64,000 nucleotides of DNA. It comes from Candidatus Latescibacterota bacterium (lineage in GTDB: Bacteria; Latescibacterota; UBA2968; SICM01). Shown here piece by piece: positions 18,044 through 52,089 of this stretch (positions are counted from its first letter, which is position 1; every line of letters starts with the position of its first letter). The stretch covers positions 576,001 through 640,000 of the forward strand of contig CBDCJO010000002.1 in NCBI GenBank assembly GCA_965217865.1, given 5' to 3'. The notes beneath the pieces were generated by a model. That model was not told the origin of the DNA, searched no databases, and worked only from the letters and a program-made list of their open reading frames with translations. Made by a program: the position numbers and the translations under genes.

Positions 18044-18056
18044 GCGGTGTGCCTTA

Positions 18057-26859: not shown

Positions 26860-27317
26860 CTGTTGGGCTTGGCGACCGCCGCGACCGTGGAGTCCTCCGT
26901 CTTCTATGTCAATCATCCGACGAAGTGCGACGTGCTGCTCTATTCCGATCCGGGCATGGCTCCGACCGGCGCGGCGGAATGCAGCGACGATACCCCGGGA
27001 ATGAGCTCCAACGGCTTCGATCCGGGAGCCGGGTTCTCGGGCGGCCTCTCAGTGCAGGCTACGACTTGGGCAGGCTGCGCTTCGAGGTCGAACACCTGAG
27101 CCGCTACCAGGGGGATGACGTTTCGCCCCTCCGCGGGCGGGCGGCGGGAATGAAGTGCTGGCAGGCAAGTCCGGCGAGTGGAGTCCGGAAGAACCGCCCT
27201 CGGAAAGAATTTCCGGCTTCCGCGCCCACCAGTTCTTCGTGAACGCATACTATGATTTCGAGAACAACTCGCCCTGGAGGCCCTATGTGGGCACAGGTGC
27301 CGGCCTTGCCCGCGCAA
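26860..27317 (+). pseudogene. Opacity-like outer-membrane beta-barrel fragment
   Basis: AGYDLGRLRFEVE and NAYYDF...WRPYVGTGAG, split across frames. Confidence 0.6.
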
Positions 27318-27558
27318 GGCCGCTTCCGCTGTCCGGTGAACTGCCGTAAGCTGATGACCGGACCCACCGGGTCCGGCCGACGGGAAAAACAGAGAATCAG
27401 AGAATCCGGAGGAGATATCTCTGCTCAGCGGACGCAACCCCGCGGTTGTGCTCGGACCACAGGGGGAAACGCTTCGAAACAGAGAATCGGCAGAGAGGGG
27501 AAGGAGGTGGCACAAGTGTTTGTGAATACGACAGAAACGACAAGACCCCGAAGGGTTG
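27318..27558 (+). repeat. Dispersed repeat A, copy 1 (IS-end or MITE-like)
   Basis: Highly similar to 49860..50151 (GGCCGCTTCCGCTGTCCGGTGA...AAACAGAGAATCAGAGAATCC...GAAGGGTTG). Confidence 0.8.
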
Positions 27559-28934: not shown

Positions 28935-29864
28935 TCAAGCAGTTTCGCTAAAGCTTGGTGATCCATTGGTCTGGATAACATAGTCGAAAGTAATCTCATC
29001 GAATTGACTACCACGAGTGTCATCCTTAATGTCGATGATCTTAACTGCTGCGAAAAACCCGTTCGCGTTCTTTAACACTGCGATCTGCCCGACTTTGGGG
29101 CGGCGAATCCAGGAAGAATCGTCGTAAGCCCTTGCGTCGTCTATTTCACCTATCTCTTGCTTGTCCTTGACCACTGCAACTGTGGAGATGCTATCAGAAT
29201 TCCTGAGAAGTTGGATGTCATGATCACTGGACTTGGACCAGCCCGTTTCAAACATTAGCTCGCCAGACCCAATGCTGAATCTTCCATCGTTGTTTGAATA
29301 GTCAAAAACTACCTTCCCTCTAGTCGCGGGCGATACGTACTTTTCGGAACTAGGGATGAATTTCTGGTTCGCAAATTGTTTGACTACTTCAAATGGATTT
29401 TTGCCAAGCGGGGGTATCGGTAGCAGGGGTTCATCCAGCAGAGACCTAAGAAGTTCCTCGTATCTTGCTTCGTAGAGATGATCATCATCGAAATCAATAT
29501 ACAAGGCGCCTTTCAAGAAAACCGGTAGCTTCTGATCGCCTGGGTTGTTTCGTATGACGGGAATTATCCACTCACGGTCAAGGTCGACCATGATCTCGGC
29601 GCTCATTATTCTCTTCTCGTAACCAACTCCGCCCTTTTTGTCATTCGCCTTCTTGACGTAGTTTTCCGAGCAAACACAAAGAATCCGGTGGGATTTTGTA
29701 AACCCGTTTTCGATAAATGCCGCCACGTCTTGACCCAGATCTAAGTTCCATCTATCCAAAATCGCATTCACGCCATTGGAGCGTAAACGGGTAGCCAGTT
29801 GAAGCACCCAGTTGGAGTGATCGTCACCGTCATGGGAGTAAGAAAAGAATACAGTTGGGGTCAT
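28935..29864 (-). CDS. TIR/SEFIR-domain protein with a beta-rich C-terminal domain
   Basis: VFFSYSHD...WV..LA..LR..GV...LDRW...ILCVCSENY..KA...GGVGYE. Confidence 0.85.
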   Translation of the reverse strand: MTPTVFFSYSHDGDDHSNWVLQLATRLRSNGVNAILDRWNLDLGQDVAAFIENGFTKSHRILCVCSENYVKKANDKKGGVGYEKRIMSAEIMVDLDREWIIPVIRNNPGDQKLPVFLKGALYIDFDDDHLYEARYEELLRSLLDEPLLPIPPLGKNPFEVVKQFANQKFIPSSEKYVSPATRGKVVFDYSNNDGRFSIGSGELMFETGWSKSSDHDIQLLRNSDSISTVAVVKDKQEIGEIDDARAYDDSSWIRRPKVGQIAVLKNANGFFAAVKIIDIKDDTRGSQFDEITFDYVIQTNGSPSFSETA

Positions 29865-30241
29865 ACTGGAGCCCTGATAGGTCTCGTTGTTTTCGGCGAT
29901 AACCGGAGTGCTCGCTCTACAATCTGCTTGTTTTGACGCCGTTGCGTGCACCGCTTCCCCCACTTTGCAATGGTCGTCAGGGACCGGACGACTCTCCACG
30001 AGGTGTGGATTGAGACGTCTCTAAGCCCAAGGCGGGCATTAAGGGGGTAGGCTCAAGATGGGGTATGGACCCGGTGGCCCTCCGGTTTTCAGTGCAGAGG
30101 AAGTGCTGGATTTGGTGGCATGGATGGTCAAGCGTGGCTGCCTTGACACGGGTAGAAAGCCCCCAAGGGCGCGTTTCGCATCCACGGCACCCTAACCCCT
30201 AGGAAGGGTTTTGGGAGAGCGGACGCCGTAGGGCCGCGCTT

Positions 30242-30347: not shown

Positions 30348-31174
30348 GCTTCAATGGGGCCGCGATCTAACGATCGCGGAAATGAACCTGGATCACCGTC
30401 GAACAACTCACGCATTTCCTGCTTCAATGGGGCCGCGATCTAACGATCGCGGAAATATCCCGTTTTCCTCCCGTAGATTACCAGGGCAGAGGGCTTCAAT
30501 GGGGCCGCGATCTAACGATCGCGGAAATAAAGCATTCTCCTGCGGTTTGAAAGGTACCTGTTTGCTTCAATGGGGCCGCGATCTAACGATCGCGGAAATC
30601 CGGCTCTGGAACTCCGACTCCAGCCTTCTCCGAAAAGCTTCAATGGGGCCGCGATCTAACGATCGCGGAAATACGGACCAACGCTGCTTCTCATGTCGGC
30701 CGCGTCAAGCTTCAATGGGGCCGCGATCTAACGATCGCGGAAATTACATCCGTGCGGGCAGGAGGAGTAACTTATACTGCGCTTCAATGGGGCCGCGATC
30801 TAACGATCGCGGAAATAACGAGCTTAGGACCGGAGGCCTTGAAGTGGTGGGGCTTCAATGGGGCCGCGATCTAACGATCGCGGAAATAAGCTGGAGTTCC
30901 ACACTGTGCCGGTATTCCGGCCAGCTTCAATGGGGCCGCGATCTAACGATCGCGGAAATGGAGATGGGGCTCGCCGACGAAATTGTAGAGGTTGGGCTTC
31001 AATGGGGCCGCGATCTAACGATCGCGGAAATCATTCCGAATACCACGGCTGTATCTTCCTGTACATTGCTTCAATGGGGCCGCGATCTAACGATCGCGGA
31101 AATCCGGCCTTTCCGCAAAGGTCGCGGAGATTTGTGAGGCTTCAATGGGGCCGCGATCTAACGATCGCGGAAAT
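30348..31174 (-). CRISPR. CRISPR array with 12 identical 36-bp repeats and 11 spacers of 35-37 bp
   Basis: Plus-strand repeat GCTTCAATGGGGCCGCGATCTAACGATCGCGGAAAT; the minus strand ends ATTGAAGC and contains a CCGCGATC/GATCGCGG hairpin; I-G-type repeat; cas1 lies on the right. Confidence 0.98.
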
Positions 31175-33150: not shown

Positions 33151-33660
<510 letters not shown>

Positions 33661-33718: not shown

Positions 33719-34963
33719 CTATACGGTTAGAGGCAGCTTCAGTTCCAGTTGCGGCCAACGTAGGATATCCGAGTCGCAAAGGTCGAGGGCCGAGAGCGCT
33801 GATTCCCAAAACGACTCGAAAGACTCTTTCTTGACGGACAGCAAGCCGTGAGCCAGCAGCGAGTTATTCCGTTTTTGTAAATGGTCCTTGAGGCAATCGT
33901 AAATATGAGATTGCTTACCAGGCGCCTCGTCCGCGCTGAACTCCAAAATCCGGAACAGATTCCGGACACCGAGTTTATATGGGCCATCGTTAGGTTGTCC
34001 AAGCCTCTCAATAACGTCTTCACGACGAACAGCCGGAAAACATTCTATCGAGACCTTGCCCATTTCAGCGCCGAACGCCTGCTTTACGAGTTGCTGACCG
34101 CGCAGCTCGACGGCGCGGTATAGCCTGCTGATGGCGTCGTCATAGCGCGACTGTTTTGCGCGTCTGTCGGCGTTGGCAAGAAGTTCAAGCAGGGTTTCAT
34201 GCCCCGCAGTCTTATCGTTTTGTGCCACCTGATCCTTGACGGCCGTCCAATGCTCATCCAGAGATACCAGCCTCTCGTAGAGCGGATGGTCGAGCGAGAG
34301 TTCCAGTTTTTGCCGCCAACGGCGAAACTCATTGTGGGCTCCCTTAAAGTCAAACCGGTCGGCCAGCCCGAGAGCCTTGGCGAGCCCGGCGAACGCCTCC
34401 AAGCGCGCTCGCTGCGACTCGTCACTCTTTTGTGCGGCATTCTCAAGAATCGCGGCGGCGGAATCGGCGTAGAATTCCGCCAACAACCCGTTCGCACGCT
34501 CAAGTTCGCGCACGGCGTACGTAATCCACGGGTTTTGGCATCTGACGACACGTTCGGATCCGGTAATGACCGTGCCAAGATTGTTGGAGTCGCGGCTGGA
34601 GCCGCCCACATAAACAAAATTTTTGAAATGCTCGACAGCGGCAAGCGTGAGTGCGGCCGACATGGGTTTGGTGCCGCCGGTAATGTCTACATATACCTCC
34701 TCGGGGTCCAGCTTGCGCTCGCTGAGCCACCTCTCTATATCGGTCCGAATCTCCTGATAGCAGATCCCGATATCCTGGTGATCTGAGATCTCCGAATACC
34801 CGTATTGAGGAACATAATCCAGCCCGGGCAGGATCTCGTTTTCCACCTGAGACCTTGAATCACCGGAGACAACAAATAGAACATAAGCGGGCCGGGCTTC
34901 CAAAGCCTTGCGCACCGGTTCTGGTGAACCTCCAACACTGGCGATCGTTCCGCGTAGGCTCAT
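33719..34963 (-). CDS. CARF-HEPN type III accessory ribonuclease (TIGR02710/Csm6-like)
   Basis: SVGGSPEP, VDITGGTKPMSAAL (CARF); DDA..RLYRAVE, RNNSLLAHG (HEPN). Confidence 0.9.
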   Translation of the reverse strand: MSLRGTIASVGGSPEPVRKALEARPAYVLFVVSGDSRSQVENEILPGLDYVPQYGYSEISDHQDIGICYQEIRTDIERWLSERKLDPEEVYVDITGGTKPMSAALTLAAVEHFKNFVYVGGSSRDSNNLGTVITGSERVVRCQNPWITYAVRELERANGLLAEFYADSAAAILENAAQKSDESQRARLEAFAGLAKALGLADRFDFKGAHNEFRRWRQKLELSLDHPLYERLVSLDEHWTAVKDQVAQNDKTAGHETLLELLANADRRAKQSRYDDAISRLYRAVELRGQQLVKQAFGAEMGKVSIECFPAVRREDVIERLGQPNDGPYKLGVRNLFRILEFSADEAPGKQSHIYDCLKDHLQKRNNSLLAHGLLSVKKESFESFWESALSALDLCDSDILRWPQLELKLPLTV

Positions 34964-35910
34964 TGGTCGGTTTCCTTTCGCCAGATCATGGGGACGGCGA
35001 GCCCGAAGGCGGCTTGAACCGGGTGGATGCTCCGTGCGGCAAGCGATTGACGAGCACTCTTGCTGAGCAAGCGTTCCGGGCCAATAGGGGCGCCGTAGAA
35101 AGGTTTTGGAGGGAGATTCGTGCGGAAGCAGGCACCCGCCGCCAGCATGACCTGCGGACGTTTGAACACGGCGCTGGAGTGGAACTCCGGGGCCAGTTTT
35201 CCGTATTTGACAAAAAGTCGCCAGAAGCCTTCCGTCGGGTCATCGGCCGCCGGTTGGAAAGTCGAGAGTGAGATGAAGCCGTCGGCACCGGGAATATCAT
35301 TCAGTTCAGGACAGGGCGTCGGATTGCCGTCCAGTTCAAAGCCGCCATGGCCCACCGAGGCATCGGCGCCGTATCCGGTCCGCCCCAGCATTTCAAGAGC
35401 TTCCATCAAAATCCGCATGCCGCCAGCGGAAGCCCGAGCAAAAATGGTCAAGTCGCCGTCGGACTTGCTGAGACTCGAAAACGGAACTTCAAAAAGTTCA
35501 CCGCCGTCGCCCGTGGTATTGGAAGCGCGGGAGATGGAGTTGCGTAGCCGCACGTGATCACGGATAGAGATGCCGGGATATTCCAGCTTGGGTTTCCCTC
35601 CACCTTGGACCCAACAAAAATCGGCAGTAGTCATCCAGCGATATTTCTTGATGTCCTTGCGCTCCTCTGGAGGCCAATCCCACCACAACGGGAGGCTCGC
35701 CGGCGCTGGCAGCGAATCGCCGGGAAAAGCGTCCGAGATGACAAATAGCGGCTCGCGGGCGAGCCATGGATCCAGAAAATCCCGCCGGAGCGCGGTCGGA
35801 CCCCGAGAACGCGCCCATGCGCACGCCATAGCGCCAAGAAGCGAATCCGCCTGCCAGGGCGTGGTCCAAACCCCGAGGGGCTTCAGCTTCAGGCGGATCA
35901 ATGTGTCCAT
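34960..35910 (-). CDS. csm4: Csm4 (Cas5-group RAMP)
   Basis: ADSLLGA, ISDAFP, RNSISR, GYGADASVGHGGF, K....M...GA.F. Confidence 0.85.
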   Translation of the reverse strand: MDTLIRLKLKPLGVWTTPWQADSLLGAMACAWARSRGPTALRRDFLDPWLAREPLFVISDAFPGDSLPAPASLPLWWDWPPEERKDIKKYRWMTTADFCWVQGGGKPKLEYPGISIRDHVRLRNSISRASNTTGDGGELFEVPFSSLSKSDGDLTIFARASAGGMRILMEALEMLGRTGYGADASVGHGGFELDGNPTPCPELNDIPGADGFISLSTFQPAADDPTEGFWRLFVKYGKLAPEFHSSAVFKRPQVMLAAGACFRTNLPPKPFYGAPIGPERLLSKSARQSLAARSIHPVQAAFGLAVPMIWRKETDQ

Positions 35911-36548
35911 GGCTCCCCGTCCAATTTGAAATCGTCGAAACTCACCGCTCCCGAACCCCGACTCGTCCCACCTCCCAATCCCGTCATTTGCACCAGATTC
36001 AAGCCGTTGGCAACGACTGCTTGGAGAGCTTCATCGCCGTTACGCCCCCCGTACTCGAATCCGGCGTCGAGATCGAAGACTTGCAGAACAATCTACATCT
36101 TGAACTCCGTGCCCTCGACTACACGCTCGTTCGACCGCGGATGTTCGGCCGCGCCCGTTTGGCGGTTGATCACGTTTTCCGTCTTATTCTCAATGCGACC
36201 GCCCTGAAGAAGCCGTCCGTCGCGGACGATGATGCGGGAAGGACCGAGGTTGCTCTTGGGATTCATGTGCGCTCCAAATACCCGACAGACGGGGCACTCC
36301 GCATTTGCACATCCACAAGGTTTGTCCTTCTGGTTCTGGCCGCCGAATCGACCCAGCTTTTTCTCCAACTCGGCCCGCATCTTTCCCTTGAGCGACGAGC
36401 CTGGAATGTAGGGCTTGTGAGTTTCCGGGTTCTTGATCACCGGGTTGTCGGAGCCGCCAATGGCCAACTCGTCTTGCGAACCTCCGATATGAAGGCCGCT
36501 TTCGCAGCGAACAGTAAAGGTAATGGTGTGAATGGCTGTTCTTTGCAT
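35898..36548 (-). pseudogene. csm3: Csm3 (Cas7-group RAMP) interrupted by an in-frame TAG at 36093-36095
   Basis: GLHIGG...GGSDNPVIK, PYIPGSSLKGKMR, CPVCRVFG; the same frame resumes after TAG and contains GLGGGTSRGSG. Confidence 0.9.
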
Positions 36549-36549
36549 G

Positions 36550-37080
36550 TCAGCGTCTCTCCTTCATGTATGCGGCCCCAAATCCGACCAGCGCCTCGAA
36601 ATGTGGTAGAAAGCCTTCCAGAAATGTCTTTTCAGGCTCTTCCGCGGCGACTACCCGTTTCACGTTCCTATTGATGAAATCTTGAAATTCTGGCGGAATC
36701 TTGCGCGCCTCGACCGCGTTCTGAGCATGGTAACAAAGTGCCTCGAAGCGGGCAGATACGCGAAGCCAACTTTCGCCGTCAACTTTCAATTGGCGTTCAA
36801 TCTCACGACAGTGATTGAAGAAACGGCGTAACTGGCCGGTAGTCAGTTTGGGATTAGACTGAGTTGCAAGCTGCTTGGCCAAATGATCAACGTTCTTCTT
36901 GGAGACGAAGTCGGGTTGAAGATAGCTTTGGCCCCGGTCATCAATCTTGAAGTACGAGTCCGGTAATTTCGGAAGGGCTTTCCCTGGTGGCCTGCTACGA
37001 TCATCGCGGCCACGGTCTCGTCGCTCTGATTGTGTAGATTGTAATCCCGCCCGTTTCATAGCATCTCGCATGTCAGCCAC
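36550..37080 (-). CDS. csm2: Csm2 small subunit
   Basis: LTTGQLRRFF...HFEALVGF; located between cas10 and csm3. Confidence 0.85.
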   Translation of the reverse strand: MADMRDAMKRAGLQSTQSERRDRGRDDRSRPPGKALPKLPDSYFKIDDRGQSYLQPDFVSKKNVDHLAKQLATQSNPKLTTGQLRRFFNHCREIERQLKVDGESWLRVSARFEALCYHAQNAVEARKIPPEFQDFINRNVKRVVAAEEPEKTFLEGFLPHFEALVGFGAAYMKERR

Positions 37081-38542
37081 GGCGTTCTTCCTTTCCCGAT
37101 CGTGTTGCCAGCAAGGCATAGCGCAGACTTGCCGCCGGTTCGGTTACGCGCCGATCGTTGCGCTCCAGATATTCGAGCACACGGTCCGCCCAGCGACGAA
37201 AGTCGGTGTGACGGCGGGGGCACATGCGCTCGATTTGATAAGCCCAGCGAGCCGCCCGCAGAGGCTCACTGTTCTCTGCGAGCCGGAGTAAACGATGCAG
37301 CAGTGCGCGAGGAGCCACGCCGGCTTCAACCCAGTCCGCAAGCCGCTTGCCATCGCCTACCACAGACTCATGTTGCTTCCAACTCCAATCCGTCCCCAGG
37401 GCGGCGCAGCGGTTCTTGCCCGGACGTTGCTTGGCCGACTCCAGGAGTTCCTCTGCGCGCTCGACGGCGTGACGAATCGGCACCCGGTAAGGGGTCAAGG
37501 CGACTCCGGCGCTGAAAGTCATTGGCACATACTCGCGGCCTGGCCCGGACTCAAACTCTCTTGCCAAAAACCCGGCAAAATCGAGCACGATGTTCCAAGG
37601 GCCAACTAGCAGCAGATCGTCCCCACCGGCATACAGCGTATAGATCAAAGGCCATGACTCTGCCAACAATTCCTGAATTGTCTGCCCGAAGAACTCATGC
37701 AGACTGTAACTGAAAGACCTCAGCCGCTGATACGACGGATCTTCTCCGGCTATCTGTCCAACCCGCACACCCATATCGTCCACATCGGCTTTCAGCACAG
37801 CCAAACGACGGTCGCCGCGGGATTGGTCCGCAATCTCCTGGAATGTCAGCGGTTCGCCGGAGTCGGAATGGCGCGGTATCCAGCGACTCACTCGAAAGGA
37901 TCCAGGAGTCCGGCTTTCCGATGCCTCAAAGGCGATGCCCAACGCTCGCGCCGAGCTGCCGCCGGGGCGCATCCATTTCCACTGTGTCAGCTTTTCACCG
38001 AGTTTGCGGGCCTCCAGACAGCTCTTACAATGGAGAACCTCCTTACCTTTATCCTGTACGCTCTGCTGCCCCGGAGATTGTCGGCAGACTTCACACGGTT
38101 CGTCAAGTGGAGGTTGACTCCAACCGTCCGGGTTCCAGCCGCTATTGTTTTGCAGCATGGAAGCTCCTATACGGCGCTTCTGAACTTCCAGATGATAGCG
38201 GGCGGCGTGGAGTGTCTCTGCCCAGTCCAGCGAGAACTGAACTTCTCCGCCGGATTCATCCCAAAGCTTGCGTTGCAAGCCGGAACGAATCTCCTCGATC
38301 AGAACGGGGTCAGTATCAGGTGGAATCCGCACCAGAAAACCACCCCCACCCCGGACCAGAACCTCATCATTGGCAATACTCAAACGTTCCTTTATCGTCC
38401 AAAGTGCGGCATGTTCGAAGAGTTCGAGCAGGAACGACCGGGATCGCAGGCGCTTCGCCTGCGCTTTGCCCGCGCTCTTCACTCGCAACACGAAGTGCTG
38501 GATTCCCGAGAGGTCACCGATCAAGTAGATTGCATCATTCAT
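37073..38542 (-). CDS. cas10: Compact Cas10/Csm1 lacking the HD domain (489 aa)
   Basis: Starts at Palm1 (GDLSGIQHFV...LRSRSF); Zn finger CEVC/CKSC; Palm2 KADVDDMG and YAGGDD. Confidence 0.92.
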   Translation of the reverse strand: MNDAIYLIGDLSGIQHFVLRVKSAGKAQAKRLRSRSFLLELFEHAALWTIKERLSIANDEVLVRGGGGFLVRIPPDTDPVLIEEIRSGLQRKLWDESGGEVQFSLDWAETLHAARYHLEVQKRRIGASMLQNNSGWNPDGWSQPPLDEPCEVCRQSPGQQSVQDKGKEVLHCKSCLEARKLGEKLTQWKWMRPGGSSARALGIAFEASESRTPGSFRVSRWIPRHSDSGEPLTFQEIADQSRGDRRLAVLKADVDDMGVRVGQIAGEDPSYQRLRSFSYSLHEFFGQTIQELLAESWPLIYTLYAGGDDLLLVGPWNIVLDFAGFLAREFESGPGREYVPMTFSAGVALTPYRVPIRHAVERAEELLESAKQRPGKNRCAALGTDWSWKQHESVVGDGKRLADWVEAGVAPRALLHRLLRLAENSEPLRAARWAYQIERMCPRRHTDFRRWADRVLEYLERNDRRVTEPAASLRYALLATRSGKEERRG

Positions 38543-38545
38543 GTG

Positions 38546-38758
38546 TCACGACTTACCTCTGCTCTCCATAGCGCGTCCGACCTGCATGGAGTCCTCAATG
38601 CCAGCGCCGGAGATACCGTCTGTGGACTCGTCACGGAGGTGCTGCCGAATGTAGGTTTGTTCTTCCTCGAATGTCATGTCTCTGACCTGCTCACAAAGTG
38701 CATCTCGGATTGAGCGCATCATGTGTACGGCGTCGAACCGCTTCTCAGTATTCTCCAT
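38546..38758 (-). CDS. Small putative antitoxin partner of the PIN protein
   Basis: KRFDAVHMMRSIRD...MTFEE; overlaps the end of the PIN gene. Confidence 0.55.
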   Translation of the reverse strand: MENTEKRFDAVHMMRSIRDALCEQVRDMTFEEEQTYIRQHLRDESTDGISGAGIEDSMQVGRAMESRGKS

Positions 38759-39209
38759 AGTCGATTACCTCCCTGGGCGTTCTGATTTCGAGTATTGGAT
38801 AGCCTTGGCGCAGATTCACTGAGTTGTACGCATGAATCCGTCGCAGGTTCACAACGTGCTTGAAGTTCCAGCTCACCATGACATCGACTCGGCTGGTTGT
38901 AGCGATAGCAATGTGTTGGGCATCTATCCTGTTTGCCGTGCCGATAACTCCCGAATCAACATACCGGTGTGCGAGTGCGGCAGCTTCTTCAGTCAATTCA
39001 ACATGCTCTCGATGTGTTTCTGGCACTTTCTTGAGTACTGCTCGCACGGCCGCTGGCGCTGACAGAAGCTCCAATGAGGTCAGGCTGGATAGCACAATCG
39101 TTGCCTCGCCACGCTTGAATGCATCCACCAACAGTTGTGACGCTTCCTCGAATTCGGCGTCGAGACAGCCTCCAATGACCGATGTGTCGGTGTAGATTCT
39201 TCGTTTCAT
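38745..39209 (-). CDS. PIN-domain (VapC-like) protein
   Basis: IYTDTSVIGG, EL, DAQHIAIA, VSWNFKH, EIRTPREV. Confidence 0.85.
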   Translation of the reverse strand: MKRRIYTDTSVIGGCLDAEFEEASQLLVDAFKRGEATIVLSSLTSLELLSAPAAVRAVLKKVPETHREHVELTEEAAALAHRYVDSGVIGTANRIDAQHIAIATTSRVDVMVSWNFKHVVNLRRIHAYNSVNLRQGYPILEIRTPREVIDYGEY

Positions 39210-39464
39210 CGTGGGTTCCGTTGCATCTGGCCACGGGAATCCAGTGTTCGATTTCAATCAACCGAATCAGTGCCCGTATAGCGCTCGATGATCGAGTCGC
39301 CGACCTCAGCGAGGCGGGCTGGTTCCGTAAGCTGCCTTAGCAGCCTGGATCGCCTTTCGGCCGTTTCAGCATCGTATTTCCGCGCGTTCGGGCTGAACAT
39401 TCCCCCGCAGTGATTGGACGCGGACAAACGATATGGTGAGTTGTCAAGTATCAAGCATGCAGTC

Positions 39465-41135
39465 TCACTGGCAACGAAACAAACCCAAGCCAAAATGCGA
39501 TGCATATCCAAGCGCTAACGGACCTCGAATCGGACGATCAAACTCGATCCGGATGGCGAAGCCACAGCGGATGGGAGGCTCCGGCCTATCCCGCCGCGCA
39601 AGCACAAAATGCCGCAGGCGGGACCAGCGCGGATTGTGGTCCTTCGGACTAGCTCCACTTGCTTCTTCCACCAAACGGATGAACCGAGACGGACACGGAT
39701 TCGGCGCGAGTTGATGCACCGACTTGGGCTCCGGTAGATTACGAGAACGTAACTCTGCACGCACCTGTTCAGTAAGGGAATTTTTCCCTTGAACCTTGAG
39801 GTAGCGTGGGGGGACGAAGGGCGTCAGTGTCTCCCAGACGCGCGCATTCCCGGCACCTAAAAGACGCCCCATCTGATCTCCAAGACTACCCGGCAGGCGT
39901 TCCAAATCGGCTAAGGAACCAGTTGCGGAAACGGCCAACCGCAATGGGTCGACGCCGCCTTTGGTAAAAGTTTTGCGTGCATCTCGGATAGCCGCTTGCG
40001 CATCGGCGTCGAGACCCATGCGCGCCCAGATGACGATATGATCGAGGTGACCGTCATCGTCGAGGTCCAGAGGAATGACGTGGGCATGTTTGTGAGCGCC
40101 TTTCAGGGGTCGGCTGTCTTTATCGCGACCAGTGAGTACCGAGGGAACCGCCCCCTTCTTCGCAGCGATGCTCACCAGAGCCTTGTGGAGCAATTCGCCT
40201 TGCGGTAGCGTCCTTGTCACCGGCGGCAACGCATGGTCATTGCGGCTGGCATTGGTCAGGGACAACAGCATGGCCTGGACCGGCTCGGCAGATTGCATTC
40301 TCCTCGTGGCTTTGGGCGCACCAACCTCAATGGCGTTGGTTCGCCGCCAATAGAAGACGCGTCGGCTGCCCGGCGGCTGGCTCCACCCATGCTGGCGCAG
40401 CCAGTTTGTGTCCTTCTGCAAGCAATCGAGTAGATCAACGGGGAAAGGGTCCGCGGCTCTTTTCCGGTCCTGCGGGCTCTTCTTCGACGGTTCTTTTCCG
40501 TCTGTAAGGGGCAAGCGGACCAATGCCTCTTCCAGACGCTCCAATCGCCAATTCTCGAAATCGCGAGCACCCACGGCCGCAAGCATCGCGACCTGCTCCC
40601 AGCCAAGTCCGGGTGATGCGCCCATCTGTTCGGGAAAACAGTTGCTTTCTGGCGCGACTTCGCCTTGCCCAATCACACGGCCCATGATCCAGCTTTCCGA
40701 ACGCCCCAGATAACCGAGACGCTCCACTAGGGAACCAAGGATGGCAGACTCCTCTTGACTCAGGTTCACGTCGTTCCACGTGACCGTTAACTCCTCATCT
40801 TCGACTCGTCCCCAGGTGTCGAAGACCAAAGTGGTTTTTTCAACCTTCTTTCCGTCCAGTACGGCAGTGGGCATGTAATGGCGGCTATGCGCACCCACGG
40901 CAGGCGGCAGGTGATAGCTCGGAAGTTCTGCGGCCAACTTCTCCACCAGACGGCGGGCGACGGATGGCAGGCGGTCGCCATTCCAAATCCCGGAGGTGTA
41001 GCTAACCGAGACCAGCGCACGGAGCAGACGCCATGGCGAGGGCGGCCACTCGATCAAGCCTTCGTTGACGTGATGACCCCAAGGAGTGGCGTGATACCGC
41101 CCAGCGGGAAAGTGAAATGCAAGGGTGACGGCCAT
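39465..41135 (-). CDS. csb2: Type I-G Cas5/Cas6 fusion Csb2
   Basis: GRYHATPWG...EWPPSPWRLLRAL; C-terminal GPLALGYASHFGLGLF. Confidence 0.93.
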   Translation of the reverse strand: MAVTLAFHFPAGRYHATPWGHHVNEGLIEWPPSPWRLLRALVSVSYTSGIWNGDRLPSVARRLVEKLAAELPSYHLPPAVGAHSRHYMPTAVLDGKKVEKTTLVFDTWGRVEDEELTVTWNDVNLSQEESAILGSLVERLGYLGRSESWIMGRVIGQGEVAPESNCFPEQMGASPGLGWEQVAMLAAVGARDFENWRLERLEEALVRLPLTDGKEPSKKSPQDRKRAADPFPVDLLDCLQKDTNWLRQHGWSQPPGSRRVFYWRRTNAIEVGAPKATRRMQSAEPVQAMLLSLTNASRNDHALPPVTRTLPQGELLHKALVSIAAKKGAVPSVLTGRDKDSRPLKGAHKHAHVIPLDLDDDGHLDHIVIWARMGLDADAQAAIRDARKTFTKGGVDPLRLAVSATGSLADLERLPGSLGDQMGRLLGAGNARVWETLTPFVPPRYLKVQGKNSLTEQVRAELRSRNLPEPKSVHQLAPNPCPSRFIRLVEEASGASPKDHNPRWSRLRHFVLARRDRPEPPIRCGFAIRIEFDRPIRGPLALGYASHFGLGLFRCQ

Positions 41136-41141
41136 GAAACC

Positions 41142-42146
41142 TTACTCGTTATCTGTATCTTCCGCATCATCAGCAGTAGCGTCGTCTTCTGCCTTGCCTT
41201 TCTTGAGTTCGTCTTCGAACTTGATCTCGCTCACCTTCATACGATCTTGGCAGGTGGCGACTGCTGACGTCAGATCTGCTTCCAAATCCACCAAAGTCGG
41301 CAAAGCCCATTGGGAAGGCATGAAGGCTTTGACATCCTCGTCCTTGAGTTGAAAATCGCAAGCGGTTCGCAGCCGAATCCCTTCATCGGTTAGAGCCCGT
41401 ATTTTATACAGCGCCAATAGGATCAGGAGGCGTTCCGCACTGTCGCCCAGTCCGTAACCACGGATTTGGGCCAAATCGAGATTGACATAGAGCGTGATCG
41501 ATTCCGCCGTGTATTCGTCTCGTGCGAACGGAACGTTTCCGAATCCTTTCTTCGTGTCGCCCTGGGGGTTGACGTGATCGTTCTTCACACCGCCGGAAGG
41601 AGCGACCTGTACATTGTCCGCTTCTATAAAAGCTGACAGAGCACGAGCGACTCGAAGGCGCCCACCCGCCAGTTGTTTCTTGGCCAGGAACACACCATGC
41701 AGTAGAGAATTGATATCGTACTTTAGAATCACGTCAGCTAGCTTCTGACGATCGATAGGGCCGGTCTCCATCACCCCCAACTCTTCTCTGAGCGAATTAA
41801 TAAAAGTATTATCACTGTTTTCCAGCAGGTACGGGCTATTCAGCCGGTGGGACTCCAGTATCGTGTCCGTCAGAAATCCGCCGTTACGAGTTACACACAC
41901 GTGCGAAAGACCTTCCAATTCCTCCTTGACGTCCTGTTTCGCCGAATCCCAGATGGTCATCTCCAAGTGGTTGGCCATGCTCTGCACCGACTCCACCAGC
42001 AAGCTTGCGCCGTCCTGAACTTGGAACGTCGCAGCGCCCAGGGACGGGAATCCAGTGGGTTGGAAGCGATGGCCTAAAATCGGCTCCAATGGGATCTTAA
42101 ACAGCAGGCGGTTGGTGTCCTTGAGCGACTTCAGATTGATGGACAT
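41142..42146 (-). CDS. csb1: Type I-G Cas7 (Csb1)
   Basis: RFQPTGFP, LLVESVQSMANHLE, HRLNSPY, SLLHGVF, GGVKND, GFGNVPF. Confidence 0.92.
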   Translation of the reverse strand: MSINLKSLKDTNRLLFKIPLEPILGHRFQPTGFPSLGAATFQVQDGASLLVESVQSMANHLEMTIWDSAKQDVKEELEGLSHVCVTRNGGFLTDTILESHRLNSPYLLENSDNTFINSLREELGVMETGPIDRQKLADVILKYDINSLLHGVFLAKKQLAGGRLRVARALSAFIEADNVQVAPSGGVKNDHVNPQGDTKKGFGNVPFARDEYTAESITLYVNLDLAQIRGYGLGDSAERLLILLALYKIRALTDEGIRLRTACDFQLKDEDVKAFMPSQWALPTLVDLEADLTSAVATCQDRMKVSEIKFEDELKKGKAEDDATADDAEDTDNE

Positions 42147-42150
42147 GGTC

Positions 42151-44601
42151 TCACTCCTTGTTCGGATCGAGGCGGTCGAGAAATCGTCCAGCGGTTCGTT
42201 GCGTAATGGGAAAGGCCAGCCCTGCCACCCAGAGGCGGGCAGTTTCGGGAGACGTGGTACCGCCGCGCACGGTGCAACGGACACCAGCGGCATGCAGACG
42301 ACGCAAAGCAAGGGCGATGGCTGACGCGGCATTGCCCGCAGCAAGACGGCGGACAATCACCGGGTCGGCGCCGATATCGAGCTTGTTTCCGGAGCGGGTT
42401 TTGAGAGGCCAGGGAAGCATGCAGAGGCGAATCGCCATCCAGGCGTCGTCAGGCCAGTTCGACGTCTGGGGCAGTTCCATGGGGAGGCATTGCTCCGCCC
42501 AGGCCTTGCGGTCCAGAGCCATAAGGGCGCGCGCCATAGCCAATGTTCGATCCAGGTCCACGCCTCCTGATAGCAACGCGACGAGATCGGCGGTGCAGGC
42601 CGCGGCGCGAGGCCCAGCTTTGAGCGGCAGATGTCGATCGCCGCGTTGTGAAGCCTCAACTAAGCGCCGTTCGATCAAGGCGACGGCATCGTCAACCCCG
42701 CGGCGACCATGCATGACGACTTCAGGTTGCACATCCAGCCGTGTACCGGCTCCCGTGCCGGTCGTAGCGAAGCGCCACGGCTGCTTACGATCCAAGGACA
42801 GCCAATGCCGTCGGATCGGATCGATTGGCGTTCCCTTTTCACGGCGGAACCCGCGTGCCTGTAACGCGAAGGCGACCGCTAATCGAGCCTCGGGGGTTCC
42901 ATCATAGGTGGCGGCCACCCACTCAGGACGCAAGCGAGGCACAGGTTGAGCACCGTAGCCACTGCCATGGGCCATTATCTCTTCAACTTCCCCCAACTGT
43001 AGGATGACACGCTGCCAGGATTCGTGCTGGTAGGGATGTTGGGTCGCAGTGAAGAGAGCCTCGACGAGACGCCTCTCGACCGCAACAAGGCGAGCCGGCG
43101 CGTTCTGGTCGCGCGCCTCTCGGCGTATGTGACGTAGCCATGTATCAAGATCGTCAATGCAGGCCAAGTGTTCGGACTGCTGATCCGCAACATCGAATCG
43201 ACCCAACGGTACGGCGAGATTGGATTTACCGTTACGTTCGATGTAGCCGTATCGTTGAAACGCACTGATGCCTCGCGCTGTGCCCAGCCGCACAACGGCC
43301 CGCGCAAGGTCCAGAGGTTCGCGTACGGCCTTGGCGCCAACCTGTGCGCGTCCCTCTGCAAGCAAATGGCGTAGCTCCGTAAAGGTCGATGGGTGCGACC
43401 AAAGCGGCATCCACTGCTCGCCCCGGGCGCTCTCATCGTGGGCTGATGCACTGGCGTAGCCCGCGCTGCACGCATTGACGACAAACGGTGAGGCCGCACG
43501 CGATGAATCCAACGACCCGAAGCGGCGCGTTGCATGCGAAATGAATACAGTGGCGCCCTCAAGCATGAGCACAAAGTCCAACGGATTCACCATGCTGTTC
43601 CCCTCCGGGCCATTGCCGTTGTTCGCTCCTCCGGCAGTGCCAGGCAGGTATTGGCCGACAGGTCGCCCCGTCGGATAGTCAGAAATGAGCACACCCCAAA
43701 GCGAACCTTGAACCCAAGAAGTCGCAGTATGTCGGGGTTTGCCTTGGTCACTAGCAAGGTCGAAGACCTCAACGAGCCACTGCATAAAGTTGTTTGTGAA
43801 GTCAAGATTGCCGTCGTTGCCTCCGGTGCCAAGCAATGCCGGACTATTGAACTGATTGTTCGATTCTCTAAGCCGTCTTTTGTAGTTTTCCGATCCCTTC
43901 ATCCTGGAGAATAGCTCTTTTAGGCGTTGGTTTTCTTCCTTAAGCTGGTCCTTTTCTGCTCCTTTTGTCTTCAAATCCTTGATTGTTTTTTCGGCTATAT
44001 CTCTGGTATGCAAGAATTCTTTATAATCTTCGGCAGCCTTGATCTGTTCTTTTGCCTTCTTGAGTCGTTGTTCTGCTTTCTCCAAGTCACGTTTGTTCTC
44101 GGAATCTCTGATTTGATCTCTGTCTTTTTGGGCTTTACTTAGGTCAGAATGCAGCCGCTCGTAGTCTTCCAAATATCTGCGCCGATCTCTCTCCACGTCG
44201 TGCTCACCGGTCTTGGTCTCCGCCTTTATATCTCTGACTTTTTTATCAGCCCTTGATAGATCATCAAGCGCAGAACGGCTGGCTTTGATTGCATTGCGGA
44301 AGTTTTTGAATCGAACGGCCTTGGATTTCTCGATTTGAGATAGAGCTGAGCCCTTAGCGATGAAGAACCCGGATCCCTTGTTCCACGGCGACACAAGGGG
44401 CGTCGGTTGATACCGGTATAAGAAAAATCTCTCAAGCTCCTCGCGGGTTAAGGTGGTCGCTAGTTGAAAGTGATCCCCGTCCCACCAACCACGAGCGTTG
44501 GCGTCAACCTGTTCGGAAACCAAGCGCAGGATGCCAAGCGCCTTGAGGTAGTGTGCGAGTGGAGCCGGTGCACAGCCGTGGAGTCGATGGATGTGAATCA
44601 T
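42151..44601 (-). CDS. csx17: Type I-G large subunit Cas8u1/Csx17
   Basis: GCAPAPLAHYLKALGILR, PWNKGSGF, LLGTGGNDG.LDF, NP.DFVLMLEG, RGE.WMPLW, F.RYG..ERNG. Confidence 0.92.
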   Translation of the reverse strand: MIHIHRLHGCAPAPLAHYLKALGILRLVSEQVDANARGWWDGDHFQLATTLTREELERFFLYRYQPTPLVSPWNKGSGFFIAKGSALSQIEKSKAVRFKNFRNAIKASRSALDDLSRADKKVRDIKAETKTGEHDVERDRRRYLEDYERLHSDLSKAQKDRDQIRDSENKRDLEKAEQRLKKAKEQIKAAEDYKEFLHTRDIAEKTIKDLKTKGAEKDQLKEENQRLKELFSRMKGSENYKRRLRESNNQFNSPALLGTGGNDGNLDFTNNFMQWLVEVFDLASDQGKPRHTATSWVQGSLWGVLISDYPTGRPVGQYLPGTAGGANNGNGPEGNSMVNPLDFVLMLEGATVFISHATRRFGSLDSSRAASPFVVNACSAGYASASAHDESARGEQWMPLWSHPSTFTELRHLLAEGRAQVGAKAVREPLDLARAVVRLGTARGISAFQRYGYIERNGKSNLAVPLGRFDVADQQSEHLACIDDLDTWLRHIRREARDQNAPARLVAVERRLVEALFTATQHPYQHESWQRVILQLGEVEEIMAHGSGYGAQPVPRLRPEWVAATYDGTPEARLAVAFALQARGFRREKGTPIDPIRRHWLSLDRKQPWRFATTGTGAGTRLDVQPEVVMHGRRGVDDAVALIERRLVEASQRGDRHLPLKAGPRAAACTADLVALLSGGVDLDRTLAMARALMALDRKAWAEQCLPMELPQTSNWPDDAWMAIRLCMLPWPLKTRSGNKLDIGADPVIVRRLAAGNAASAIALALRRLHAAGVRCTVRGGTTSPETARLWVAGLAFPITQRTAGRFLDRLDPNKE

Positions 44602-44739
44602 AGTCAACTCTTTTGCTCGAAACGACGGCACCAAATTGCGGCGTGGAGTAGTGAATCGTGTCGGTCGTAGTTTCGTAGGGCGGTTAAGTAGCGCGGGGAT
44701 TCTTCTCCAGTCGATATAGCGAGATCTACGAGCGGCAGG

Positions 44740-47538
44740 TCAAGCCAGCACATTGGTCTCTTTCTCGAGTAAAGGATCAGCAACCGCTTGAGCCGAGGCC
44801 CGAAGGTCGGCGGCGCGCAGTATTGCTTCCAGCCAGGCAAGGGTAAATGGTCCAAAGCGTTCGACCAGATTCAGCACGCGTTCGGTCCAACTCTTGCCCG
44901 TGCGCGGGCTCAGGCCAGCCGCAGACGGTGAGAGGTCAAGCGCGGTAGCTGGCAGTTGGTGAAGCACTCCGTCAGAGGTTGCCAGCGGTAGCGTCGGCAA
45001 CATCTCACCTTCGCGAACGCCGCGGATGCGTAGCCGGGTATCGTCCGCCTTCTGGTCCGCAGGGCCGGAGTGCCATGTCATGCGAACCTTACCGTGATGG
45101 GCGCAGACGAGGTAGGCGACCAGATCGAACTCCTCACCGCTTAGATCGAGGATTTCCTGTTCGATGGTCGTGAGTTCAGCGGGCGCTGGGTCTACGCAAA
45201 CGGCATCTTCCCCCGGATTGAAAAAAGCGCTGTTTGTTTCACTTATGGCGCCCAACCACTCGCGCCAAGGACCGAGAAGAGCCTGATGTTCCGGATCGTG
45301 ACGTTGGAGCACGCCAAACAGGCCCAGTGTGCTGGCCAATTCGTGGCGGAAACCGCGCCGCTGGTCAGTAGAGTCGATGCGGTAATAGTTGCTCGCACTG
45401 CACGGCCACGCGATATCCGGCGCCTTGGCAATGTCGTCGCGTACGGGACGGTTTTCAGCCTTGATCGAGCCCTGAAAAGCGGGATGTGCCTTGCCGAGAT
45501 CATGCCAGCGTCCTGCCAAGTGCAACAGTTTGGCGAGGGCCGGGGGGACTTGGTCCGCGATGCGTTCGACTTCCCGTCCCACCTGCAGGCCGTGGCTGGC
45601 GATGGTTTGCCAGCCGTCGGTGAGACTCAGGGATTCGTCGTCTTCACTCGCGTCCGCATACTCGTCAGGTGGAAGTTCACGCACGCGCCGCTCGCCCGGG
45701 CACCAGCCGTCGCCATCGCGTTTCCAGCAAGGATGTCTGGCGTACTGAACTGCCTCGTCCACTGGTACGGGGTCAACTTGGCCCTTCGCGTGTGGGTCCC
45801 AGCCGCGACCTTCGTCGTACCCCCCCACGCGACTCTCCACCAGCACTGTCTGGCCGGGGTAGAGATCACGGCGCTTGACCTCACGCCATTCGCGGTTCAG
45901 CCAATCCCAGACCCAGGCATGCTTGTCAGGTTTCAGGTTCTCGGACTTCGGTCTGCATAGCCAGTCACGGGCTTTGAGAAAGGGCACGCTACAAAGCTCG
46001 CTACGAGTAGGTTTCATATCCGAGGATGGCTCACCACCATCGACGTCGGCCCAGAAGACCTGTACGTCGCGTTCATCGCCCGACCGGATAAAGCGGCTGA
46101 TATCGATGTCTGCCCCCGATAGATCTGGTGAGGTGTCGAACAGTTCGTTCAACTCGTGGCGCAGCAGCAGATGCGTGGGTTGATAGGGATAGAGGCGCGG
46201 CAGCAACTCAACGTTCTCTTCCTCGAAGCGCTCAAGATGGCTCGGCGCAACGTCGTGCAACAAGTTGCAGGCATCGCGCGCAACGGCAAGCTCGTCCATC
46301 GTATATGGCGACGCCTTCTTATCGGTGCCGTGCTCGAAATCGGCGACAATGACCTCACCTGCACCGCCCCATCGAGCGCAACGACCGAATCGTTGCACCA
46401 GGCTGGTCCATGGCGCAAGTTCGGTGACCAACAGTGATGCCGAGATGTCCACACCAGCTTCGACCACCTGAGTGGAAACGATGATGCGATTCGTCCCGGC
46501 GGTACAAGCTGCGCGATTGAGGAAATCGCCGCACCAAGCTAAGCGTTTGGTGGGGCGAAACCGGCTGTGTACCAAGCGAACATCTGTGTCAGCCAGCGCC
46601 TTTTCTGACTTGAGTGCTTTCCAAACGTCAACGGCCCGCTCGACCGTATTGAGCACGACCAGCGTTGGTTCTTCTTTCCCACGGCCGAGATGTCTGTGAC
46701 GCTGAGAAACGTATCGAGCGAGCGCCTTTGGATTCTTGAATGCGGCGACTTCGACGGGCTTCTGTACACCGTCCCATAGACGACCGGTCCTGTCCTTGGG
46801 TTCGATGCTGTGGGTTCTTTGCGCCAGTTCGGGGACCAAGTCGGCGGTGTCCGGGCTCGTCTCCAGCCAGTCACGCTGTAACGTGGCGCTCATCCACCAA
46901 GTGAAACAGGGGCGCAGCGACTTGCTGGCTTCCCGGTCTTCGGTCCGAAAAACCTGAATCTGTCCCGAGGTGGCAAGGCCCACATCCATCAACTGCACTT
47001 CATCCATCACCCAAAGGGCGTCCTGGTTCAGCAGACCGAATTCCATGGGCCAACGCGCCCGTGGGCTGGCGTAGCCCCGGTTCATGGCGCGCGACAGCAA
47101 CATGTCCTGCGTGCCGATCAATACGGCATCGCACTCGGGATAAAGATGCCACTGACCGGCGTCCACACCGCCCATGAGCAAATGGACGCCGATCTTTCCG
47201 TCATGCGCGCTCTTCTTATCCCACAGCACTCCGAGACGTTCGAGTACTGCCCGGGCTTCTTTCTCTGTCTGCTCGACAAGCACCCGCATAGGTAGGCACC
47301 AAATCAGGCGGCGAGGCCAATCGTCGTTTCGTTGCCGCACCCGATGCCATGTCCAGGCCGCGAACACGCCCAGCGTCTTTCCAAATCCGGTCGGGATGCG
47401 TATTAGCCGGTTACCGCAATCTTTGGAAGTTGCCAGTTTCGTTTGCCAAGTGAGCGGTTCCGTCTTGCCGCACAACTTGGTAAAGAACTTGGCGAAATCT
47501 GTCGCGTTCATCTCACTTACGACCATCGCTTCGCTCAT
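44740..47538 (-). CDS. cas3: Type I-G Cas3 (helicase with C-terminal HD domain)
   Basis: PTGFGKT, DEVQ, SAT, QVVEAGVD, QRFGRCAR; C-terminal H...WHDLGK...RHE...HHG...AD. Confidence 0.95.
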   Translation of the reverse strand: MSEAMVVSEMNATDFAKFFTKLCGKTEPLTWQTKLATSKDCGNRLIRIPTGFGKTLGVFAAWTWHRVRQRNDDWPRRLIWCLPMRVLVEQTEKEARAVLERLGVLWDKKSAHDGKIGVHLLMGGVDAGQWHLYPECDAVLIGTQDMLLSRAMNRGYASPRARWPMEFGLLNQDALWVMDEVQLMDVGLATSGQIQVFRTEDREASKSLRPCFTWWMSATLQRDWLETSPDTADLVPELAQRTHSIEPKDRTGRLWDGVQKPVEVAAFKNPKALARYVSQRHRHLGRGKEEPTLVVLNTVERAVDVWKALKSEKALADTDVRLVHSRFRPTKRLAWCGDFLNRAACTAGTNRIIVSTQVVEAGVDISASLLVTELAPWTSLVQRFGRCARWGGAGEVIVADFEHGTDKKASPYTMDELAVARDACNLLHDVAPSHLERFEEENVELLPRLYPYQPTHLLLRHELNELFDTSPDLSGADIDISRFIRSGDERDVQVFWADVDGGEPSSDMKPTRSELCSVPFLKARDWLCRPKSENLKPDKHAWVWDWLNREWREVKRRDLYPGQTVLVESRVGGYDEGRGWDPHAKGQVDPVPVDEAVQYARHPCWKRDGDGWCPGERRVRELPPDEYADASEDDESLSLTDGWQTIASHGLQVGREVERIADQVPPALAKLLHLAGRWHDLGKAHPAFQGSIKAENRPVRDDIAKAPDIAWPCSASNYYRIDSTDQRRGFRHELASTLGLFGVLQRHDPEHQALLGPWREWLGAISETNSAFFNPGEDAVCVDPAPAELTTIEQEILDLSGEEFDLVAYLVCAHHGKVRMTWHSGPADQKADDTRLRIRGVREGEMLPTLPLATSDGVLHQLPATALDLSPSAAGLSPRTGKSWTERVLNLVERFGPFTLAWLEAILRAADLRASAQAVADPLLEKETNVLA

Positions 47539-49289: not shown

Positions 49290-49881
49290 ATGACGCGCCG
49301 AGAAGGAAAGTACGAGCGCCCAAGATGACGAACTCGCCCACCGGGAATCGGAGAACATGCCGGAGTGGGCCGAGGGCAATGAAGCCGCCTATTGGGAGGC
49401 GGCGGACCAGCATGAGCGGGTCAACGGGCGGCTTTTCCGTGAAGTGGAATTTGCCTTGCCCAGAGAGTTGAACGAGGGCGATCAGGTTGAACTGGCGCGG
49501 GAATTCGCTGGCCGGTTGACCCGCAGCGGCGACGGAGAGCGGTTGCCTTACACGCTTGCCGTGCATCGTGGGAAGGGGGAGAACCCCCACGCCCACCTGA
49601 GGATCTCGGAGTGGGCCAATGATGGCATCGAGCGGGACGCGGCGCAGTGGTTCCGGCGTTACAACGGCAAGGCCCCGGAGAAAGGCGGCGCGCGCAAGAG
49701 CATGACAACGAGGCCGAAGGATTGGCTGGAGCAGACCCGCAAGGATTGGGCCGATCATGTGAACCAGGCGCTGGAGCGGGCGGGGAGCCGGGAGAGGATT
49801 ACCGGAGCGAGCCTGCAGCAGCAGTACCGGGACGCCCTGGAGGCCGGTGACGAGCGCGCGGCCGCTTCCGCTGTCCGGTGA
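49290..49881 (+). pseudogene. MobA/MobL (MOBQ) relaxase, truncated
   Basis: REGKY, MPEWA...W.AAD..ER.NGRL.RE.E.ALP.EL, H....NPHAH. Confidence 0.85.
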
Positions 49882-50151
49882 TCTGCCGTAAGACCGGACC
49901 ACCGGGTTCGGCTTCCAGTGAATACGTACCGGAAGACCTTCCCAAACGTCGAACCAGGCTGTTAAACAAGGCCGACGGGAAAAACAGAGAATCAGAGAAT
50001 CCTGAGGAGACATCTCTGCTCAGCGGACGCAACCCCACGGTTGTGCTCGAACACCGGGGGAACGCTTCGAAACAGAGAATCGGCAGAGAGGGGAAGGAGG
50101 TGGCCCAAGTGTTTGTGAATACGGCAGAAACGACAAGACTCCGAAGGGTTG
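49860..50151 (+). repeat. Dispersed repeat A, copy 2
   Basis: Similar to 27318..27558 but with an extra internal segment. Confidence 0.8.
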
Positions 50152-52080: not shown

Positions 52081-52089
52081 CACTTGCCC

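Follow-up and report, generated by a model that had tools for sequence, protein, structure and literature searches.

A Conserved, Apparently Undescribed Type III-A-Derived CRISPR-Cas Variant without Csm5 and the Cas10 HD Domain, Linked to Type I-G Loci

Introduction

Can a CRISPR-Cas effector of type III-A dispense with Csm5, which is held to be one of the five core Csm subunits, ending the filament and recruiting the nucleases that trim the CRISPR RNA (crRNA)? The question is raised by a locus in a 64,000 nt stretch of DNA (hereafter, the window) from Candidatus Latescibacterota (assembly GCA_965217865.1, 2 contigs, 96% complete and 9% contaminated; contig CBDCJO010000002.1, positions 576,001-640,000, forward strand). 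On the minus strand of the window, a compact csm gene set is lodged within a type I-G locus, in the order cas3g, cas8g, cas7g, csb2, a small PIN pair, cas10, csm2, csm3, csm4, CARF-HEPN, cas2, cas4-cas1 and a 12-repeat array. A preliminary description took this set for a minimal, signalling-only III-A-like effector. Previous work, cited here by PubMed Central identifiers, indicates that Csm5 blocks filament growth and recruits trimming nucleases (PMC10289348), and a role of Csm5 in immunity is cited in PMC8964682. In Staphylococcus epidermidis devoid of csm5, the complex assembles and crRNA maturation is lost, with anti-phage function kept upon overexpression (PMC9762709).

Here we describe the module as a real, conserved and apparently undescribed III-A-derived variant, representing a lineage that is predicted to be functional. 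We consider it probable that, in this lineage without Csm5 and HD, the intact members use guides cut by Csb2 from I-G arrays, cleave target RNA and make cyclic tetra-adenylate (cA4) for a CARF effector, the window copy itself being probably inactive. This reading builds on direct observations: the gene content, relatives that likewise have neither HD nor csm5, signs of purifying selection, and the linkage with csb2 and I-G repeats.

Results

The Module and Its Cas10 Protein

The features central to the argument are given below in window coordinates.

37073..38542, minus strand: cas10/csm1, 489 aa, HD-less, with Palm1, a zinc finger, Palm2 with GGDD and a C-terminal helical domain
36550..37119, minus strand: csm2 (Cas11 small subunit), TIGR01870 33.9 bits (cut-off 30.6), PF03750
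35898..36548, minus strand: csm3 (Cas7 backbone), 216 codons interrupted by a premature stop, with matches to Csm3 profiles on either side
36093..36095, minus strand: premature TAG, the single one inside csm3, at codon 152
34960..35910, minus strand: csm4 (Cas5), 316 aa, TIGR01903 75.4 bits (cut-off 55), PADLOC Csm4 9e-53
33719..34963, minus strand: CARF-HEPN ribonuclease of family TIGR02710, 414 aa, 197 bits (cut-off 83.9)
39465..41135, minus strand: csb2 (Cas5-Cas6 fusion, type I-G), TIGR02165 182 bits (cut-off 45)
30348..31174, minus strand: CRISPR array, 12 repeats of 36 nt and 11 spacers of 35-37 nt

The coordinates, the Pfam matches and the alignment to Csm1 agree with the earlier statement that the 489-aa Cas10 starts at Palm1, 3 bp beyond the upstream gene; these 3 bp (38543-38545) follow the stop codon of a 70-aa open reading frame (ORF), and the Palm1 motif GDLSGIQ occupies residues 9-15. 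The protein is recognized by TIGR02578 (254 bits, cut-off 170), and Pfam detects only Csm1_B and Palm2 in it, with no HD domain. Since its profile aligns to the solved Csm1 structures only from residue 234 (6kbd) or 249 (9ash) onward, some 230-245 N-terminal residues, including HD, are missing. As previously noted, the zinc finger and the Palm motifs are kept; two CxxC pairs and the motifs KADVDD and YAGGDD are present. The AlphaFold2 model (pLDDT, predicted local distance difference test, 85) has Lactococcus lactis Csm1 (9ash) as its top Foldseek match (TMq 0.74), and the best PDB matches are all Csm1. Among the L. lactis Csm1 residues assigned to catalysis, adenine binding and cyclic hexa-adenylate (cA6) specificity in PMC11417356, residue mapping shows that D253, S277, D520, S546, Y572 and D577 are kept, D281 is replaced by Glu, and the cA6 residue T542 is missing. 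The GGDD motif is kept in 119 of the 120 best homologues. Loss of HD alone is ordinary, given that this domain is recognizable in only 65% of III-A systems (PMC11229360).

The longest csm2 ORF encodes 189 aa, the likely start judged from the sequence being the ATG at 37071, 1 bp past the cas10 stop, which gives 173 aa. The csm3 gene (TIGR02582, 141 bits, cut-off 90) encodes the catalytic Asp motif GGSDNP; this motif is kept in the lineage, so that intact copies should also cut target RNA, which speaks against the earlier label of a signalling-only system. The csm4 stop codon does overlap the CARF-HEPN start (ATGA, 34960-34963), as had been reported, and there is no csm5 in the locus, its usual slot being occupied by the effector gene. 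The effector is 29% identical over 421 aa to TTHB144, a TIGR02710 CARF-HEPN protein (PMC6599890; our reference is the TIGR02710 protein upstream of cas1 on Thermus thermophilus HB8 pTT27, its identity being deduced from that location). The positions of Lys94 and His368 are kept, that is, the CARF Lys and the HEPN Rx4-6H His are both present, and Thr10/Thr11 align to Gly/Ser.

Absence of csm5

The suggested search for an orphan csm5 throughout the window genome yielded none with TIGR01899, with a Csm5 profile built for the purpose or with the Pfam RAMP (repeat-associated mysterious protein) model; all three gave csm3, the single RAMP match in this genome, as their best match. The gene is also absent from all 22 assessable loci among 24 related genome loci (the remaining two being too short), from all five assessable loci among ten more distant metagenome loci (five too short), and from L116. 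Over the whole genomes of the 24 relatives, csm5 scores above the cut-off in one, at another locus. In 22 of 22 cases the gene after csm4 encodes a CARF effector, the family of which varies (six checked by PADLOC). A 357-aa gene after csm4 in six relatives was considered as a hidden Csm5 and rejected, because it encodes a CARF7 effector in the two of the six that were scanned. For background, 800 genomes from two phyla were sampled by means of a profile that is biased in favor of the window lineage; of the 50 III-A-like loci obtained, 41 have csm5 and five do not, four being too short. Lacking Csm5, the module is classed here as a III-A-derived variant and not as canonical III-A.

A Deep Lineage under Purifying Selection

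The 24 related genome loci, with 53-82% identity, all match from Cas10 query residue 1-5. Together with the uniform absence of csm5, this shared start upholds the preliminary description's case for a streamlined variant as opposed to a local deletion. The record titles name Latescibacterota, Chloroflexota, Acidobacteriota, Opitutales, Rhodothermales, Binatia, Spirochaetia and one short Enterobacteriaceae contig. Among 867 homologues, the best 120 measure 477-541 aa without exception, lengths of 267-902 aa having been searched. The ten metagenome loci (40-44% identity) constitute a sister branch, and those of sufficient length share the layout. For the four core genes, the ratio of nonsynonymous to synonymous substitution rates (dN/dS) is 0.07-0.42 in window-relative and relative-relative pairs, which indicates purifying selection, and 19 of the 23 complete modules have no broken core gene, a comparison in which the csm2 column was set aside because its reference was out of frame.

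In a tree of Cas10, Csm3 and Csm4 with 48 loci (48 of 69 rows, 21 having been dropped for speed), 20 csm5-less rows are separated from 28 csm5-bearing rows by a branch with support 100/99, and within the former an HD-less subgroup of 11 rows, one of which (L059) has no csm5 assignment, is supported at 100/100. A quick tree of all 69 rows recovers the same two groups at 100. In a Cas10 tree with 50%-cluster representatives, the window falls into a group of 86 rows, for part of which genome context is covered, and none of these rows has an HD extension (support 99). The relatives of this Cas10 thus lack both HD and csm5, which answers the phylogenetic check that had been proposed. HD-bearing csm5-less III-A loci are found as well (L040, L046, L049, L055, L057, L065, L068, L080, L081, L082, L135, L143 and L145), and in L143 and L145 an ordinary cas6 follows csm4, i.e., sits in the csm5 slot. 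Other genes in such loci encode a primase-polymerase (L065, L081 and L082) and, before cas1, a reverse transcriptase (L057).

One relative, L023:11204-14260, lies beside a type I-E operon and contains three Csm2-like units in one open frame, a frameshifted cas10 and two csm3 copies. The second csm3 copy is degenerate, with no catalytic motif and no glycine-rich loop, and might represent either a home-made cap or decay.

No member of the lineage was found among 50,697 phage records, none was confirmed in viral contigs, and no viral sequence matched the window repeat. The plasmid search gave 21 distant matches, none above 38% identity.

Linkage with Type I-G Genes and Repeats

Among the 25 module genomes, csb2 is present in 24; within the phylum of the window genome it occurs in 7 of 7 module genomes versus 18 of 161 others, counts in which related genomes are not independent. 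A stand-alone Cas6 half of Csb2, with its C-terminal His kept, lies directly before cas10 in eight loci (L011, L021, L027, L029, L030, L035, L036 and L133); in L035 and L133 it occurs besides a full csb2, and L010 has a second full csb2. The C-terminal His of Csb2 (H547 in the window) is invariant in 10 of 10 aligned proteins and, judging from its position, would correspond to the published H503. At L001:3582-5942, L007:7536-10004, L009:2679-5039 and L024:6590-8782, Csb2 is enlarged to 730-822 aa, either by a long insertion in its middle or by another Cas6-like part at the C-terminus.

The arrays beside HD-less modules carry I-G-type repeats, with the exception of L023, which has I-E repeats. 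In the window repeat (fold -14.6 kcal/mol, z -3.9), an 8-bp hairpin precedes a stretch of 4 nt and then the 8-nt handle, the geometry of the published Csb2 cut site (PMC9638904). According to the same source, the Cas6 domain of Csb2 alone cuts the repeat and stays on the hairpin product, with a dissociation constant (KD) of about 43 nM.

The Window Copy of csm3 Is Broken

The preliminary description overlooked two lesions, the in-frame TAG in csm3 and a frameshift in the cas4-cas1 fusion. Apart from the TAG at codon 152, the effector and the four core genes, with csm2 judged separately, show no lesion. The last 64 codons continue in frame beyond it and still match Csm3, such that the truncated product would lose its last 64 residues, including the glycine-rich loop. 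At this position a sense codon is found in 23 of 23 relatives checked. Contigs with zero differences cross the TAG in sequencing runs X1, X2, X3, X4 and X7, representing at least four samples from two studies, and an assembly error was rejected on these grounds, with the reservation that the source sample may be among them as X1 and X2 and that rare variants are lost from contigs. Among nine runs, no RNA run with this sequence was listed. Recoding of TAG was also rejected, because none of the genome's 50 tRNAs has a CUA anticodon (pyrrolysine genes were not searched for separately) and TAG terminates 368 of 1777 long ORFs genome-wide. Self-targeting was considered as a cause of the stop and rejected: compared with their own genome only, and leaving the array itself aside, 0 of 11 spacers have a match longer than 21 nt. 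Given an in-frame stop that recurs in contigs of two studies, with no suppressor tRNA, the window copy is probably inactive.

Discussion

The Proposed Mechanism and Its Alternatives

By analogy with published Csb2 biochemistry, Csb2 would cut the repeat 4 nt past the hairpin. The resulting crRNA would be about 72 nt long (8+36+28) and begin with an 8-nt handle; its 3' end, without Csm5, would presumably stay untrimmed. Csm4 would take the handle and Csm3 would coat the spacer; whether the stable hairpin, probably still bound by the Cas6 domain, then terminates the Csm3 filament is, in our estimate, evenly balanced. On the evidence of the conserved residues, Csm3 is predicted to cut target RNA, the Palm domains of Cas10 to make cA4, and the TTHB144-like CARF-HEPN protein to degrade RNA and probably its own activator too. 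With regard to origin, HD-bearing csm5-less sisters exist, two of them with ordinary cas6, and the loss of csm5 therefore likely came first and did not require Csb2. If the root lies among csm5-bearing III-A systems, csm5 was likely lost once in an HD-bearing ancestor, and the loss of HD and the switch to the I-G Cas6 would have come later.

Several observations weigh against this reading. The root of the Cas10-Csm3-Csm4 tree was not inferred, and the order of losses holds only under the above condition; in Cas10-only trees rooted on type III-B/C/D-like Cas10, the root falls beside the HD-less clade, which could accordingly be nested among the III-A Cas10 proteins or be their sister, and a 208-row FastTree does not unite the HD-bearing csm5-less rows. 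Within the modules, a core gene is broken in 4 of 23 complete ones (L019, L021, L023 and L024), some perhaps through assembly errors. Moreover, L. lactis Csm1 binds the donor ATP with a Palm1 aromatic residue, Y304, whose equivalent here, Cas10 residue 63, is either Val or Ile in all 20 of the 20 members aligned, and the yield or type of the signal may accordingly differ. In the HD-bearing csm5-less loci, the repeats fold weakly (z -0.2 and -1.2) and csb2 is missing from the locus, so that a strong hairpin and Csb2 are not required for life without Csm5. The kinship behind the csb2 counts is to be added here. Finally, dN/dS in the part of csm3 beyond the stop is 0.10-0.18, with no sign of relaxed selection, which implies that the stop either is recent or is read through.

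Possibly, although with less than an even chance, the Cas6 domain of Csb2, for which some loci have a separate gene in front of cas10, remains bound to the 3' hairpin of the crRNA and replaces Csm5 as an RNA-tethered, type I-style cap, with a fixed 72-nt guide and an array shared with the I-G Cascade. The preliminary description had put forward a Csb2 cap as speculation, and in the HD-less branch the genomic data on csb2 and on the separate Cas6 genes lend it indirect support. Such a cap cannot explain the loss of csm5, given the sisters without csb2 in their loci, two of which carry ordinary cas6; complex prediction for Csm3 and the separate Cas6 protein, both taken from L011 and supplied as alignments, scored 0.00 in two runs and bears neither way. 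It is likewise conceivable, again with less than an even chance, that in the same working lineage Csb2 cuts and then leaves, whereupon the crRNA is shortened by host exonucleases as far as the last Csm3, and no cap closes the filament. This would accord with the ordinary cas6 of L143 and L145 and the weak repeats among the HD-bearing csm5-less sisters, with the 9 of 24 genome loci that have no csb2 in the examined flanks (three upstream flanks being short, and the csb2 of L003 lying on another contig), and with an S. epidermidis Cas10-Csm4-Csm3(5) particle devoid of Csm2 and Csm5 (PMC10289348). Against an uncapped end stand the tight hold of the Cas6 domain on the hairpin noted above, the recruitment of trimming nucleases by Csm5 itself (PMC9762709), and the dedicated second Cas6 copy near cas10 in L010, L035 and L133, which fits stoichiometric use. 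A messenger other than cA4 appears improbable: the Val/Ile substitution and a weak mCpol match in 5 of 20 members would favor it, but the effector encoded alongside is similar to an enzyme that cA4 activates, the key Lys and His being aligned, and the cA6-specific Thr is missing. The other linked effector families, CARF-RelE and Csx16, are of the cA4 type.

The preferred reading of a functional lineage with a disabled window copy also has to be set against three less likely accounts. Read-through of the csm3 TAG, by which the window copy would still work, is unlikely; the lack of other lesions in the core genes and effector, the unrelaxed selection beyond the stop and the spread of the allele over samples of two studies are in its favor, but there is no CUA-anticodon tRNA, TAG is a normal stop genome-wide, the complex needs several Csm3 copies, and the cas4-cas1 fusion is frameshifted too. 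Supply of a diverged Csm5, or of another type III system's cap subunit, from elsewhere in the genome is very improbable. The genomes are incomplete assemblies, 9 of 24 have at least three RAMP matches, and several relatives hold other RAMP-rich type III loci; however, three different profiles found no Csm5 in the window genome, where csm3 is the one RAMP match, and a single RAMP match was likewise obtained in 12 of 24 relatives' genomes and in G603, G736 and G534. That a normal III-A operon is decaying here, with the module as its remnant and a passive passenger in I-G islands, we regard as scarcely credible: the core genes are broken in the window copy and in a minority of relatives, but they are intact in most, dN/dS is low, the catalytic motifs are near invariant, and the core is kept in a deep lineage while effector families swap.

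Comparison with Known Systems

With the III-A Csm complexes of L. lactis (9ash), Thermococcus onnurineus (6mur), S. epidermidis and T. thermophilus HB8, the module shares a Cas10 that has the fold and the cyclase residues of the Csm1 type, further Csm2, Csm4, a Csm3 in which the catalytic Asp is kept, the gene order and the CARF-HEPN effector. It differs from them in the absence of Csm5, HD and a canonical cas6 of its own, in the 489-aa size of Cas10 compared with about 750-820 aa, and in the type I-G repeats. HD-less III-A loci known from surveys (PMC11229360; Arcobacter cloacae pACLO, Fulvitalea pFA8) likewise have a short Cas10 and defend by signalling and RNA cutting, but those of Arcobacter and Fulvitalea keep csm5 and cas6 and fall elsewhere in the tree, and hence represent separate losses of HD. 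The III-A2 variant (PMC12669027) is another reduced III-A clade with an active cyclase; judged from its text description and not from the gene-content figure, it has no Cas11 and is linked to NucC, in contrast to the window lineage, which keeps Csm2 and is without Csm5. In III-G, in III-H and also in III-I, according to the same text, the cyclase is inactivated or lost, with HD kept in III-G/H, whereas the window lineage has GGDD and no HD. The I-G Cascade of Thioalkalivibrio sulfidiphilus (PMC9638904) likewise has Csb2, a 36-nt hairpin repeat, a 4-nt linker and an 8-nt handle; in the window, by contrast, the guide would load on a type III backbone, and the eight loci named above carry the Cas6 half alone before cas10.

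The literature searched, as judged from listings, yielded no account of a III-A lineage that naturally lacks csm5, and subscription papers, figures and data files beyond these may hold one. The accessible text and three supplements of PMC12669027 do not mention csm5, and the clade may be present unnamed inside its Cas10 tree; the accessible part of PMC10910872 mentions neither Csm5 nor III-A.

Implications

A deep lineage that persists under purifying selection without Csm5 makes the purpose of the cap, and the need for crRNA maturation, testable. If our reading is correct, the HD-less branch is a type III effector operating on type I-G guides, through which RNA-triggered signalling is added to a DNA-targeting system, and it ranks among the smallest effectors that signal by cyclic oligoadenylates (cOA), with cas10 to csm4 in 3.6 kb. 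The earlier proposal that the small size could suit RNA sensing holds for the intact relatives, which, with this compact core and no DNase, are candidates for RNA detection, but not for the window copy, a poor subject with its backbone gene broken.

Genomic Surroundings of the Module

The remaining genes of the locus are as follows.

38546..39212, minus strand: small, toxin-antitoxin-like gene pair inserted in the interval from csb2 to cas10, one gene for a weakly matching PIN-domain protein, the other the 70-aa ORF
41142..47538, minus strand: cas7g, cas8g (csx17) and cas3g, open frames, TIGR02570, TIGR04113 and TIGR02621 above cut-off
33151..33441, minus strand: cas2, PF09827 and TIGR01573
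31359..33133, minus strand: cas4-cas1 fusion, type I-G, with a one-base frameshift near 32350, NF049935 matching both halves

The host locus is thus of type I-G, with cas3g, cas8g, cas7g, csb2, the (frameshifted) cas4-cas1 fusion and the hairpin repeat all present. The junction of the frameshift was compared with L004, and contigs with zero differences cross it in X1, X3 and X5; from the sequence, the cas1 half, with a GTG at 32336, might be produced separately. The PIN-domain protein of the inserted pair matches PIN_3 with E 7.5e-4, below the cut-off, and L003 and L009 have other PIN pairs in the same slot.

A TIR/SEFIR protein (PADLOC bSEFIR, 246 bits) is encoded at 28935-29999 on the minus strand, just past the array, and genes for an AAA/AbiEii-like ATPase, ThiF, an MmeI fragment and a nuclease lie at 12106-20767; by gene content, these look like a defence island. 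Long direct repeats (27312-27558 / 49854-50151 and 50757-50975 / 52084-52302), 92-96% alike and about 22.6 kb apart, bracket the whole CRISPR-cas region and may be the ends of the island. Elsewhere in the genome there are a second I-G gene set with weak matches (G000:C2:509600-512700), pieces 98-100% identical to the window cas1 at four other places, and four further short arrays with different repeat types. A contig of run X1 (depth 6.7) joins 33759 to 38419, skipping 4659 bases with 23 other letters between, such that nearly the whole type III module is missing; it may derive from another organism's I-G locus without the module, the short side being just 29 letters.

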